Below, piece by piece: positions 848 to 20,892 of a stretch of 40,327 nucleotides of DNA. The DNA is from Teseptimavirus PDP351P2. The position numbers and the translations under genes are program-made. The notes beneath the pieces are model-generated. The model was not told the DNA's origin. It searched no databases and saw only the letters and a program-made list of their open reading frames with translations. The DNA lies in sequence record OZ035763.1, one strand, 5' to 3'. How positions within the stretch are numbered: position 1 is the stretch's first letter; the number at the start of each line of letters is the position of its first letter.

Positions 848-1330
848 GTGTCTACTCAATCCAATCGTAATGCGCTCGTAGTGGCGCAACTGAAAGGAGA
901 CTTCGTAGCGTTTTTGTTCGTCTTATGGAAGGCTCTGAACTTACCTGTACCAACTAAGTGTCAGATTGACATGGCTAAGGTACTGGCGAATGGAGACAAC
1001 AAGAAGTTCATCCTACAGGCTTTCCGTGGTATCGGTAAGTCATTCATCACATGTGCGTTCGTTGTGTGGTCCTTATGGAGAGACCCTCAGTTGAAGATAC
1101 TCATTGTATCAGCCTCTAAGGAACGTGCAGACGCTAACTCCATCTTTATTAAGAACATCATTGACCTGCTGCCGTTTCTCAGCGAGTTGAAGCCAAGACC
1201 CGGACAGCGTGACTCTGTGATTAGTTTCGACGTAGGTCCAGCTAAGCCTGACCACTCTCCTAGTGTAAAATCGGTAGGTATCACTGGTCAGTTAACTGGT
1301 AGCCGTGCTGACATTATTATTGCGGACGAT
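848..1330 (+). CDS. 19: terminase large subunit, exon 1 (codons 1-161)
   Basis: [19 protein letters not shown]... matches recalled T7 gp19 N-terminus; ATPase motif GIGKSF; frame ends ...IIIADD then GAA TAA. Confidence 0.9.
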
Positions 1331-2166
1331 GAATAACCATGTCGTCCTTAAACCCATCTAAACAGGGAAACCCGGAGCCTAACATGGTATACGGCAATCC
1401 TGTGCTAAATGAGACAGCCATAAAGAGCCTTATAGGCTCCCTAAGCGTCTCTAAATGCCAAACGACTAAGTAGTAGGGCCAAGTGGCTCGAAACGGTGGG
1501 AGAGCATTTACGGATGCTCTAAGATATAGTCTCGTCTATGGTGAGAAGCCATAGCACCATTTATTACGTAACACATAAGGAGTCTAACATGACCACTATG
1601 AAGAAAACTCGATATGAAGTAGGTTCAATCCATGAGTCCCCTAAAGGTCCGCTCAAGGTCCTCGAGTACATTCCGGGATATAAGGACCGCTCAACAGGTA
1701 AAAAAGTACATCCTCGCGTAGTAATTCGTATGATGAACACAGGGACTGTGCTCAACGTTCAAACCACGAATATACCAGATGGTAAGTTTGAGGACTATCG
1801 ACGTCCCACAGTTTACGGCATTGGGTATATAGGGTCTTCCATTAAAATCACCGCTAGAGGGACATTCATTCGGCGTGTGTATGACCTATGGGCCAACATG
1901 CTTAAGCGCGTGGTTCATGAGTATCAGGGAGTATCCGTGGACCCAAGATGGCTCAACTTTACGAATTTCTTGGCGACTATTCCTGATGTTAAGGGATATG
2001 CTGCGTGGGAGCGTGGTGAGGATGTTCATCTGGATAAAGACCTAGCTGGGAATAAACGATACTCATTGGAGAACTGTGCGTTCATTCCAGCTAAAGACAA
2101 CATTCGAGAGTCTTCGTTACGTAGGTGGCGTAAGAAATAACGAGCTTACGTTAAGATAATTATTCG
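1331..2166 (+). mobile_element. putative group I self-splicing intron interrupting gene 19
   Basis: Removing 836 bp restores a continuous 586-codon frame (ADD|VEIPSN as in T7 gp19); exon ends in T, insert ends in G; intron 1341-1347 GTCGTCC pairs with exon 1324-1330 GGACGAT giving a U-G wobble at the 5' splice site; core-like GACTAAG (1464-1470) and AAGATATAGTC (1521-1531). Confidence 0.75.
1589..2140 (+). CDS. intron-encoded putative homing endonuclease, 183 aa, degenerate HNH-like C-terminal motif
   Basis: ORF inside the insert with own SD (AAGGAG 8 nt upstream of ATG 1589); C-terminus VHLDKDLAGNKRYSLENCAFIPAKDN resembles an HNH motif; track ORF begins at upstream ATG 1538. Confidence 0.55.
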   Translation: MTTMKKTRYEVGSIHESPKGPLKVLEYIPGYKDRSTGKKVHPRVVIRMMNTGTVLNVQTTNIPDGKFEDYRRPTVYGIGYIGSSIKITARGTFIRRVYDLWANMLKRVVHEYQGVSVDPRWLNFTNFLATIPDVKGYAAWERGEDVHLDKDLAGNKRYSLENCAFIPAKDNIRESSLRRWRKK

Positions 2167-3444
2167 GTGGAAATTCCATCTAACAGTGCAACTATGGGTG
2201 CCCGTGAGAAGCTATGGACTCTCGTTCAGGAGTTCGCTGCGTTACTTAAACCGCTGCCTTCCTCTCGCGTTATCTACCTTGGTACGCCTCAGACTGAGAT
2301 GACTCTCTATAAGGAACTTGAGGATAACCGTGGGTATACCACTATCATCTGGCCCGCTCTGTACCCAAGGACTCGTGAAGAGAACCTATATTACGCACAG
2401 CGCCTTGCTCCTATGCTGCGTGCTGAGTACGATGAGAACCCTGAGGCACTCGCTGGGACTCCTACTGACCCTGTGCGCTTTGACCGTGATGACCTTCGTG
2501 AGCGTGAGTTGGAATACGGTAAGGCTGGCTTCACACTACAGTTCATGCTTAACCCGAATCTGAGTGATGCCGAGAAGTACCCTCTGAGGCTCCGTGACGC
2601 TATCGTAGCGGCCTTAGACTTAGAGAAGGCCCCAATGCATTACCAGTGGCTTCCGAACCGTCAGAACATCATTGAGGACCTTCCTAACGTTGGTCTTAAG
2701 GGTGATGACCTTCATACTTACCACGATTGCTCCAACAACTCTGGTCAGTACCAACAGAAGATTCTGGTCATTGACCCTAGTGGTCGCGGTAAGGACGAAA
2801 CAGGTTACGCTGTACTGTACACCCTGAACGGTTACATCTACCTTATGGAAGCTGGAGGTTTCCGTGATGGCTACTCCGATAAGACCCTTGAGTTGCTCGC
2901 TAAGAAAGCCAAGCAATGGGGAGTCCAGACGGTTGTCTATGAGAGTAACTTCGGTGACGGTATGTTCGGTAAGGTATTCAGTCCTATCCTTCTTAAACAC
3001 CACAACTGTGCTATGGAAGAGATTCGTGCTCGTGGTATGAAGGAAATGCGTATTTGTGATACCCTTGAGCCAGTCATGCAGACTCACCGCCTTGTCATTC
3101 GTGATGAGGTCATTAGGGCCGACTATCAGTCCGCTCGTGACGTAGACGGTAAGCATGACGTTAAGTATTCACTGTTCTACCAGATGACCCGTATCACTCG
3201 TGAGAAAGGTGCTCTGGCTCATGATGACCGATTGGATGCCCTTGCGTTAGGCATTGAGTATCTCCGTGAGTCCATGCAGTTGGATTCCGTTAAGGTAGAA
3301 GGTGAAGTGCTTGCTGACTTCCTTGAGGAGCACATGATGCGCCCTACGGTAGCTGCTACGCATATCATTGAGATGTCTGTGGGAGGAGTTGATGTGTACT
3401 CTGAGGACGATGAGGGATACGGTACGTCTTTCATTGAGTGGTGA
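2167..3444 (+). CDS. 19: terminase large subunit, exon 2 (codons 162-586)
   Basis: Frame resumes GTG GAA ATT ([17 protein letters not shown]...), collinear with recalled T7 gp19 to the C-terminus ...GYGTSFIEW. Confidence 0.9.
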
Positions 3445-3481: not shown

Positions 3482-3925
3482 ATGCTAAGTAAGAAGAAGT
3501 ATGTAGTCGATAAGGAGACTGGCTGCTGGAACTTTAAGGGTTGTAAGACGAAGAGTGGCTATGGTCGTCTCCGTGTAAATGGAGTCCATTGGATGGCCCA
3601 CAGGTATTCCCTGAGTTGTCATCTAGGCAGACCGATAGCTGACGGAATGGTTGTGATGCACCTGTGCGATAACCCATCGTGTGTTAACCCTGAGCATCTT
3701 AAGGAAGGGACTCAGAAGGAGAACATAGAGGATTGTATATCAAAAGGTAGGGCGATAAAGGCTACCGGTAAACGTGATGTGTCGAGAAGAGACCCTAGCG
3801 AGGAGCGTAAGGCTATAGTTATACGGCGCTACCATAAAGGATGGACAGCAACGTCCATAGCGAGATACCATAAGCTCTCTGTAGCGTGGGTAAAGAGGGT
3901 CATCGAGGCTTACCTAAGTGATTGA
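3482..3925 (+). CDS. free-standing HNH homing endonuclease (HNH_3-like)
   Basis: Strong SD AAGGAGG; motifs GC..GYGR, HR, HLCDNPSCVNPEHL, GTQKEN; no counterpart at this position in T7. Confidence 0.85.
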   Translation: MLSKKKYVVDKETGCWNFKGCKTKSGYGRLRVNGVHWMAHRYSLSCHLGRPIADGMVVMHLCDNPSCVNPEHLKEGTQKENIEDCISKGRAIKATGKRDVSRRDPSEERKAIVIRRYHKGWTATSIARYHKLSVAWVKRVIEAYLSD

Positions 3926-20291: not shown

Positions 20292-20892
20292 AAACTATTT
20301 CATTGTGCACATTAAATCTGGTGAACTCGGTGAAACCCTAATGGGGCAATACCGAGCCAAGCCATAGGGAGGATATATGAGAGGCAAGAAGTTAATTCTT
20401 GAGGCCACTGAGACTGGCTGTATCATCCCTACGTCACACAAACTTAATGCCGATGGTTATTTCAGAAAGAAAACCAATGGCGTCTTAGAGATGTATCACA
20501 GAACGGTGTGGAAGGAGCATAACGGAGAAATACCTGAGGGCTTCGAGATAGACCATAAGTGTCGCAATAGGGCTTGCTGTAATATAGAGCATTTACAGAT
20601 GCTTGAAGGTACAGCCCACACTGTTAAGACCAACCGTGAACGCTACGCAGACAGAAAGGAAACAGCTAGGGAATACTGGCTGGAGACTGGATGTACCGGC
20701 CTAGCACTAGGTGAGAAGTTTGGTGTGTCGTTCTCTTCTGCTTGTAAGTGGATTAGAGAATGGAAGGCGTAGAGACTATCCGAAAGGAGTAGGGCCGAGG
20801 GTGAGACTCCCTCGTAACCCGAAGCGCCAGACAGTCAACTCAAAGACTGATGATATAGTCCGACACTCCTAGTAATAGGAGAATACAGAAAG
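20292..20892 (+). mobile_element. group I intron in DNA polymerase gene 5
   Basis: Removing 601 bp restores a 704-codon gp5 frame (WVH|DEIQVGCRTEE); exon ends in T, intron ends in G; intron GTGCAC (20305-20310) pairs with exon GTGCAT (20286-20291) giving U-G at the splice site; GATATAGTCC core-like element at 20853-20862. Confidence 0.8.
20377..20772 (+). CDS. intron-encoded HNH homing endonuclease, 131 aa
   Basis: SD GGGAGG; motifs YHRTVW, EIDHKCRNRACCNIEHL, H-T. Confidence 0.8.
   Translation: MRGKKLILEATETGCIIPTSHKLNADGYFRKKTNGVLEMYHRTVWKEHNGEIPEGFEIDHKCRNRACCNIEHLQMLEGTAHTVKTNRERYADRKETAREYWLETGCTGLALGEKFGVSFSSACKWIREWKA

Follow-up and report, generated by a model that had tools for sequence, protein, structure and literature searches.

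A predicted group I intron with a putative homing endonuclease gene in the terminase large-subunit gene of a T7-like phage

Results

Gene 19 is interrupted by an 836-nt insert

The window analysed here is a 40,327-nucleotide stretch of Teseptimavirus PDP351P2 (OZ035763.1) and represents the complete or nearly complete genome of a T7-like phage; it shares ~92% identity over 20 kb with the Escherichia phages AV103 and 64795_ec1 and matches no deposited record exactly. Its gene 19, which encodes the terminase large subunit, is split: the frame that reads ...IIIADD runs into GAA TAA (1331-1336), and reading resumes at a GTG at position 2167. An earlier model-made reading of the letters (hereafter the original prediction) had ascribed the split to a group I intron, claiming that the frame stops after codon 161 and that removal of the insert leaves 586 uninterrupted codons collinear with T7 gp19. 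Both statements are confirmed. Deleting 1331-2166 in silico yields an open frame of 1761 nt (586 codons), whose product differs by one residue from gp19 of the intron-less phage 13a and aligns gap-free across the junction with solved chains of the terminase large subunit (8DGC, 586 aa, and 4BIJ, to which it is nearly identical over 476 aa). An 80-nt spliced-junction query is found contiguous in 698 phage records, T7 among them (92.5% identity). Group I introns with endonuclease genes are classic elements of phages.

Because G1331 and G2167 are the same base, the intron boundary is ambiguous by 1 nt; the requirement for U as the last exon base and G as the last intron base settled the choice of 1331-2166. 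The upstream exon thus ends in T1330 and the insert in G2166, as anticipated, and U and G occupy these positions in 15/15 copies compared. The predicted spliced RNA joins GAU^GUG (the caret marks the insertion point throughout), with the junction ...GCGGACGAU^GUGGAAAUU..., and the junction-spanning stretch of the predicted 586-aa gp19 reads ...IIIADDVEIPSN... In an intron-less gene 19 such as that of T7 or 13a, the candidate endonuclease target region lies around GCGGATGACGTTGAGATTCC. The insertion point lies in the region matched by Pfam Terminase_6N (residues 60-181), some ~100 residues past the GIGKS P-loop, and the motif [A/S]DD^[V/I/L]E is kept even in divergent terminases (Edwardsiella phage, L018). 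The pattern of ADIIIADD, a hydrophobic run followed by acidic residues, fits the Walker B-like segment in which the original prediction had placed the junction; this putative assignment is drawn from the motif pattern only.

The insert matches the group I intron model and fold

The original prediction had suggested a covariance-model search of the insert. Under permissive filter settings, the entire RF00028 model (Intron_gpI, positions 1-253) aligned to 1291-1554 with 49.0 bits and E 3e-11. The curated gathering cut-off of this family is 50 bits, which is a curation device and not a biological criterion. Six of nine metagenomic copies at the same gene position exceed it (76.9, 75.6, 71.5, 69.1, 66.5 and 65.2 bits), while the copies of Salmonella phage Vi06, the Edwardsiella phage and the Yersinia fPS phages score 45.1, 40.8 and 26.5 bits. 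With six homologous copies above the cut-off, Rfam's own threshold is passed by the intron family, within which the window copy is a lower scorer.

An unconstrained minimum free energy (MFE) fold of 1316-1565 recovers P1, P3, P4, P5/P5a, P6/P6a, P7.2, P8 and P9 in canonical order (Table 1). P7 is a pseudoknot and as such beyond what MFE folding can draw; in the Rfam alignment its two strands coincide with the P7-like elements that the original prediction had picked out, so that the expected P3-P7 group I core is recovered with the P7 strands in place. The P1 it had read from the letters (GGACGAT with GTCGTCC, 1341-1347, and a U-G wobble at the splice site) also holds, with U1330·G1341 as the wobble and a covarying outer pair. 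The P1 loop (1332-1339) contains the in-frame stop TAA at 1334-1336. Besides the P3 3' strand, the P7 span holds P7.2 (1476-1480/1485-1489), P8 (1501-1508/1513-1520) and the J8/7 segment (AAGAUA). P6/P6a varies in length and is shorter in the fPS, Edwardsiella and metagenomic copies.

Covariation supports the helices and links intron to exons

Comparison of homologous copies provided further evidence for this fold. When the five distinct close copies are aligned with plain MAFFT, 98.5% of cells are paired, and ten pairs change on both sides, compared with 0-1 when the partners are slid and 3.0 ± 1.5 in shuffles (0/500 reach ten). A covariance model built from these five copies, R1, was then matched over its full length once, and only once, at each of 15 loci, with scores of 81-301 bits. 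In the resulting 15-copy alignment, 97.0% of 766 cells are paired versus 35-45% when slid, and double-sided change affects 36 of 62 pairs in 168 cells versus 7-13 pairs in 8-23 cells when slid; none of 500 shuffles matches any of the observed covariation measures. MAFFT misaligns P6-P7 because the Edwardsiella copy has an extra P7.1 hairpin, and the MAFFT alignment with that copy was replaced by a manual helix table together with the covariance-model alignment. The manual table, which covers four lineages, has compensatory changes at 21/59 positions.

Individual helices conform to this picture. P4 is paired in 100% of cells with 3 compensatory pairs, P5 and P5a in 93-97% with 2 compensatory pairs each, and P7.2 and P8 have compensatory changes in 5/5 and 6/6 pairs. 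The P7 strands are invariant and therefore uninformative for covariation, yet compatible with a group I core. In the 3'-terminal hairpin all six pairs are compensatory, and 97.2% of cells pair versus 20-56% when slid (plain MAFFT alignment, 12 copies). A long-range pairing of UUACGUAA (1564-1571) with the 3' tail, which would have left the open reading frame (ORF) of the insert as a closed loop, was considered and rejected: its upstream partner is deleted in fPS, and the local 3' hairpin is conserved.

The most telling single comparative evidence, in our view, is covariation across the predicted exon-intron boundaries. P1 is paired in 100% of cells across the 15 copies, each of which retains the U·G wobble at the 5' splice site. 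Its outermost pair is AU in 9 copies, GC in 4, CG in 1 and UA in 1, and on the exon side this pair uses the third, synonymous position of the preceding Ala/Ser codon. Of the 15 copies, 12 have a 4-bp P10, which follows the first codon of exon 2, with the variants GUGG/CCAU, GUGG/UCAU, GUUG/UAAU, GUUG/CAAU, AUUG/CAAU, GUGG/CUAU and GUAG/CUAU.

Table 1. Predicted features of the interrupted gene 19 and of a second intron in the window
Feature	Position	Strand	Basis or detail
Gene 19 exon 1, codons 1-161, ends ...ADIIIADD	848-1330	+	ORF list; joined product collinear with solved chains
P1	1324-1347	+	Exon 1324-1330 and G1331 with 1340-1347 (internal guide GUCGUCC); U1330·G1341 wobble at 5' splice site; MFE fold
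Group I intron, 836 nt, subgroup IA-like	1331-2166	+	First base after U1330 to terminal G2166; RF00028; model R1, 288.5 bits; same insertion point in 14 other loci
P10 guide CCAU, directly 5' of P1 guide	1337-1340	+	Pairs with exon 2 GUGG 2167-2170
P3 (1353-1358/1495-1500)	1353-1500	+	Encloses P4-P6, P7 5' strand, P7.2; 6/6 pairs with double-sided change; 95.6% of cells paired, 15 copies
P4 (1362-1367/1398-1403), P5 (1372-1374/1392-1394), P5a (1377-1379/1386-1388)	1362-1403	+	Fold, covariation
P6 (1404-1405/1457-1458) and P6a extension (1411-1418/1445-1451; inner hairpin 1425-1430/1434-1439)	1404-1458	+	Fold, alignments
P7 pseudoknot, GACUA 1464-1468 with UAGUC 1527-1531	1464-1531	+	Rfam alignment; both strands invariant in 15 copies
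P9 hairpin (1534-1542/1548-1557)	1534-1557	+	Compensatory change in 7/9 pairs
Intron ORF, 183 aa (ATG 1589, stop 2138-2140), with Shine-Dalgarno TAAGGAG 1576-1582	1576-2140	+	Putative homing endonuclease, divergent ββα-Me/HNH-like candidate
3'-terminal hairpin CGUAAG 2129-2134/CUUACG 2145-2150	2129-2150	+	5' strand formed by last ORF codons, stop codon in loop
Terminal guanosine (omega-G)	2166	+	Last intron base is G in 15/15 copies
Gene 19 exon 2, codons 162-586 (VEIPSN...), with T7-type RNase H-like nuclease domain	2167-3444	+	Pfam PF22530, E 6e-40 on spliced protein
Intron of DNA polymerase gene 5 (group I, 601 nt), inserted at ...AWVH^DEIQ	20292-20892	+	RF00028, 44.9 bits

Subgroup

The core appears to be of subgroup IA-like type. 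Between P7 and the P3 3' strand, the copies from the Edwardsiella phage and from L014, L015, L016 and L019 carry a pair of hairpins, the P7.1/P7.2 arrangement that is an IA2 signature; an example among L009, L014, L015, L016 and L019 reads UCCC-GAAA-GGGA followed by GGACC-AAGU-GGUCC. The window, Vi06 and fPS copies retain the second hairpin only (P7.2; 1476-1489 in the window). At the nucleotide level, the P7-P3'-P8 region also weakly and directly resembles the td introns of T4-like Salmonella phages. As no P2 was identified in any copy, the intron is called IA-like here, with IA2 as a possible refinement.

The intron ORF

The original prediction had described an endonuclease-like ORF with its own ribosome-binding site in the 3' part of the insert. 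The ORF (1589-2140) and its TAAGGAG stand: this Shine-Dalgarno sequence is conserved, and the ORF sits downstream of P9. The dN/dS ratio (nonsynonymous to synonymous substitution) between the window and the Vi06 group, 0.065-0.08, indicates strong purifying selection. The term endonuclease is less secure, resting on a PHROG label and a weak fold resemblance. The protein matches PHROG 2081, labelled 'HNH endonuclease', at E 2e-44, but searches returned no Pfam family at E <= 1, no NCBIfam match and no PDB sequence match better than E ~1. In 45 homologs L148, K150, D151, Y158, F165 and N171 are invariant, and D149 is kept in 44/45. We therefore describe the product as a putative homing endonuclease, possibly of a divergent ββα-Me type, an uncertain assignment under which it is not filed as an HNH family member.

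A 44-aa ORF at 1339-1473 (+ strand) was not accepted as a gene, since it spans P1-P6 and matches no family. In CHRF_10025/10027 a short ORF across P1-P6 (L002 2042-2149, corresponding to 1339-1473 of the window) is called 'hypothetical protein' and the exons are separate coding sequences (CDSs), calls that look like annotation artefacts.

One insertion site across T7-like phages

The same insert occupies the same site in the Salmonella phages Vi06, CHRF_10025, CHRF_10027 and Sal_R1S (837 nt, ~89-92% identical) and in 18 records of Yersinia fPS phages including fPS-9/-53 (genus Helsettvirus; 788 nt, ~72-75% identical). A tblastn search with the intron ORF located a distant copy in Edwardsiella phage vB_EtA_WAG25P1, where the terminase is split at ...LILADD^IES... 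and excision likewise restores the terminase reading frame in silico. Protein searches with the intron ORF revealed 59 homolog clusters (41-99% identity), many on 36-46 kb contigs. Eight of nine metagenomic contexts examined have the order small terminase, ~165-aa ORF, endonuclease and ~420-aa T7-type terminase nuclease domain, and the codon junction [A/S]DD^[V/I/L]E is common to 9/9 metagenomic contigs sampled. This diversity came from the endonuclease protein search; an IMG/VR scan with a 33-nt core pattern returned Vi06 alone. Overall, the predicted terminase intron is an old, widespread lineage at one terminase site across T7-like phages. Its distribution is patchy, with ~23 carrier records versus 698 uninterrupted ones, and the carrier groups, so far Vi06-type Salmonella, Yersinia fPS and Edwardsiella phages, now include a 13a-like backbone.

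That backbone bears on the history of the insert. At gene 19 sites that differ between 13a and Vi06, the window is 13a-like at ~78%, yet the five informative sites closest to the intron (-4, -1, +2, +11 and +23) are all Vi06-like. For three of these five, which belong to P1 or P10, selection for pairing could be the cause. The sites +11 and +23 lie outside P1/P10, and the pattern therefore fits a short co-conversion tract from homing; such a tract, as read from the aligned genomes, indicates past mobility of the predicted intron.

Several copies depart from the common organization. At locus L018 (1724-4120) the gene order is the same, neither flanking ORF has a Pfam match, the junction reads ADD^LVIPEN and the portal gene follows directly; its ribozyme is the metagenomic copy nearest to that of the window (161.7 bits, model R1). 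As the L018 terminase has no Pfam match, the intron lineage reaches past terminases recognisable as T7-type. In L014, from a human oral metagenome (1807-2448), the exon 1 frame is open through the entire ribozyme, giving a 213-aa gene call, and ribosomes could enter the catalytic core there; in the other copies this frame stops 0-7 codons past the 5' splice site. In L017 (~3060-3100) a 1-nt deletion in the 3' hairpin loop loses the usual stop, and the endonuclease ORF extends 5 nt into exon 2.

Existing records annotate the split in different ways. In the Vi06 GenBank record (2010), gene 19 is entered as a join of two pieces and marked as a pseudogene, so its depositors had noticed the split. 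The CHRF_10027, Sal_R1S and fPS records carry two separate 'terminase large subunit' CDSs.

Discussion

Proposed splicing and mobility

We consider it highly probable (about 0.92) that 1331-2166 is a splicing group I intron in the large-terminase gene. The insert is most likely a mobile element with its own putative endonuclease gene, lodged where the codons for ...IIIADD meet those for VEIPSN... On transcription of gene 19, the guide at 1337-1347 would form P1 with the end of exon 1 and P10 with the start of exon 2, and the P3-P8 and P4-P6 domains with the P7 pseudoknot would make up the catalytic core. An external guanosine would attack after U1330, and the freed 3'-OH of U1330 would then attack after the terminal G2166, joining GAU^GUG into a terminase mRNA with 586 continuous codons. 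Ribosomes would be freed ahead of the core by the in-frame stop, which lies two codons into the intron. The product of the 183-aa ORF would most likely cut intron-less gene 19 alleles of co-infecting relatives, and repair from the intron-bearing copy would spread the intron along with a few tens of adjoining exon bases.

Several observations weigh against this interpretation. A default Rfam scan of the whole window at the gathering threshold reported no match, the window copy falling 1 bit short. P7.1, present in the fuller relatives, is missing from the window copy, and P2 was not identified in any copy compared. A clear P10 is missing in 3/15 copies (L016, L018 and L019). The 15-copy alignment was fitted to the model structure and so favours pairing, although the plain MAFFT alignments agree with it. 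On the protein side, no HNH domain is recognisable by sequence profile, and His147, the candidate general base, is His in 31/45 homologs only. The ORF product could instead be a maturase or an inactive relic.

Several of these points return in the proposal that the insert is a decayed group I intron, now non-splicing or helper-dependent, whose ORF encodes a maturase and not a homing endonuclease. The large terminase is essential for DNA packaging. Sub-threshold RF00028 scores in the window, Vi06, Edwardsiella and fPS copies, the lost P7.1 and the variable His147 would all suit such decay, as would the observation that some Bastillevirinae introns splice in vivo and not in vitro (PMC11878797). 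Against it, the core helices remain 94-100% paired even in the low-scoring copies, and the co-conversion tract signals past mobility. Moreover, the Vi06, fPS and Edwardsiella phages have been propagated as isolates and need a terminase, so gene 19 must be expressed in these viable carriers. Overall, we judge decay improbable.

The sole serious alternative among the rivals is a gene in pieces, in which an endonuclease cassette sits in gene 19 and the terminase assembles from polypeptides of 161 aa and ~425 aa with no splicing. GenBank pipelines do annotate two CDSs in CHRF_10027, Sal_R1S and fPS, exon 2 of the window begins with GTG, a possible start codon, and a functional split gene has published precedent: as cited in PMC8351571, nrdA of Aeromonas phage Aeh1 is split by mobE and its two polypeptides assemble (Friedrich et al. 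2007). As in gene 19, an essential gene there appears as two ORFs around an endonuclease gene, and automatic annotation looks identical. The Aeh1 case, however, involves no ribozyme, whereas gene 19 has a covarying group I core and a guide sequence. A split gene would leave unexplained why 260 nt of non-coding RNA are conserved, contain a group I core and show 36 compensatory pairs, and would not account for the P1/P10 exon-intron covariation or for the U and G found at the splice sites of every copy. Nor is there a conserved restart, as exon 2 begins with GTT, ATT, ATC, GTA or CTA in other copies and has no Shine-Dalgarno sequence upstream, and the break falls inside the ...ADD^VE... motif and not between domains. 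These points make a two-polypeptide terminase very improbable. The chance of an intein, a group II intron or a translational bypass (a hop as in T4 gene 60) is negligible: each can interrupt an essential phage gene yet leave its function, but the TAA right after the junction, with no frame open through the insert, excludes an intein, a group II intron has neither an Rfam match even at permissive threshold nor a reverse-transcriptase ORF, and 836 nt far exceeds known bypass gaps.

Relation to known introns

The predicted terminase intron can be compared with introns from three settings. The original prediction mentioned group I introns in T7-group DNA polymerase genes, and these are indeed published (Bonocora & Shub 2004, as cited in PMC11878797 and PMC8351571); the window carries that intron too (Table 1). 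Its removal gives a 704-aa polymerase, and the same insert occurs in 39 phage records including 13a. The two introns belong to the same phage group and share a U·G P1, a terminal G, an ORF for an endonuclease (putative in the terminase intron), placement in a catalytic motif of an essential enzyme (Walker B-like in the terminase) and a patchy distribution. They differ in host gene and in the ORF, which in the polymerase intron is a canonical Pfam HNH_3 ORF (20377-20772) upstream of P7, not downstream of P9. Model R1 does not match the polymerase intron, and the terminase intron therefore constitutes a separate lineage.

Other phages also have introns in this gene. A group I intron interrupts the terminase large-subunit gene of Lactobacillus phage LL-H. 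Group I introns in terL have been shown to splice in Bastillevirinae such as SIOphi (PMC11878797) and in Vibrio phage ICP1 (PMC10448857). Like the gene 19 insert as predicted here, these are of self-splicing type, interrupt terL and are associated with homing endonuclease genes, splicing having been detected by reverse transcription PCR (RT-PCR) or RNA sequencing (RNA-seq). In contrast, they occur in unrelated terminase lineages and at unrelated insertion sites, and the T7-type intron is a prediction from sequence. The endonucleases also differ, being VSR-like or HNH in Bastillevirinae and encoded by a neighbouring T5orf172 gene in ICP1.

The T4 td intron (IA2, I-TevI) resembles the terminase intron in its IA-type core, in P7.1/P7.2 of the fuller relatives, in the J8/7-P7 sequence AAGAUAUAGUC, in an in-frame stop shortly past the 5' splice site and in the weak similarity of P7-P3'-P8 described above. 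Unlike td, the window copy has one of the two hairpins and no identified P2, and its ORF lies 3' of P9, not in the P6 loop, and is not of GIY-YIG type.

As to novelty, the original prediction supposed that the location might be undescribed. Targeted literature searches, with the Vi06 genome paper and Bonocora & Shub 2004 outside their scope, found no description of a T7-group gene 19 intron; the Studiervirinae pangenome study lists the polymerase interruption as the sole one (PMC8351571), and the fPS genome paper makes no mention of any intron (PMC5923468). The interruption was nonetheless already present in deposited genomes, as the Vi06 join and the fPS records demonstrate. The element is thus of a known kind, in a position described in no paper found yet common to many phage genomes.

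Implications

Gene 19 would be the second intron site of the T7 group beside the DNA polymerase gene, with both sites occupied in one phage. The practical consequence concerns annotation: for the Vi06-type phages of Salmonella Typhi, the Yersinia fPS phages, an Edwardsiella phage and many T7-like contigs from metagenomes, the records split the terminase into two genes or call it a pseudogene, in either case with an added 'hypothetical protein', where one spliced CDS should stand. This affects pangenome and phylogeny pipelines in which TerL serves as a marker. No domain library (Pfam, NCBIfam) covers the endonuclease family. The finding leaves the understanding of group I introns and of terminases unchanged.

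T7-group phages are widely engineered and used therapeutically, and an endonuclease active on gene 19 would bias recombination and the outcome of phage cocktails. A bolder proposal, which we put forward tentatively and think rather unlikely in its entirety, is that the 183-aa protein founds an uncharacterised homing-endonuclease family, with an SH3/Tudor-like barrel and a divergent ββα unit in which an invariant L-D-K-D...Y...F...N stands in for the canonical HNH histidine, that it targets the ADD^VE (Walker-B-like) site of T7-type terminase genes across many Autographiviridae lineages, and that it disables a competitor's packaging gene in mixed infection. If so, the intron would be an inter-phage weapon and not a neutral passenger.

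Neighbouring mobile genes

A free-standing endonuclease gene of 147 aa (3482-3925, + strand) lies immediately 3' of gene 19 and has Pfam HNH_3 and helix-turn-helix matches (PHROG 6254). It is the counterpart of 13a gene 19.4 and of the Vi06 'gene 7.7-like' gene. Together with the intron ORF, this gene means that the terminase gene is flanked and interrupted by mobile nuclease genes. In the Yersinia fPS phages an extra homing-endonuclease gene (g045/g047) lies directly upstream of terminase exon 1 and overlaps its start (L003, L005 1092-1487), a gene that the fPS paper calls unusual (PMC5923468). On two metagenomic contigs (L013 1-1133, L012 334-993) the anaerobic ribonucleotide reductase gene (NrdD) that precedes the packaging genes is annotated as two fragments (668 + 60 aa) or adjoins a LAGLIDADG ORF, and further mobile elements may reside in this neighbourhood.

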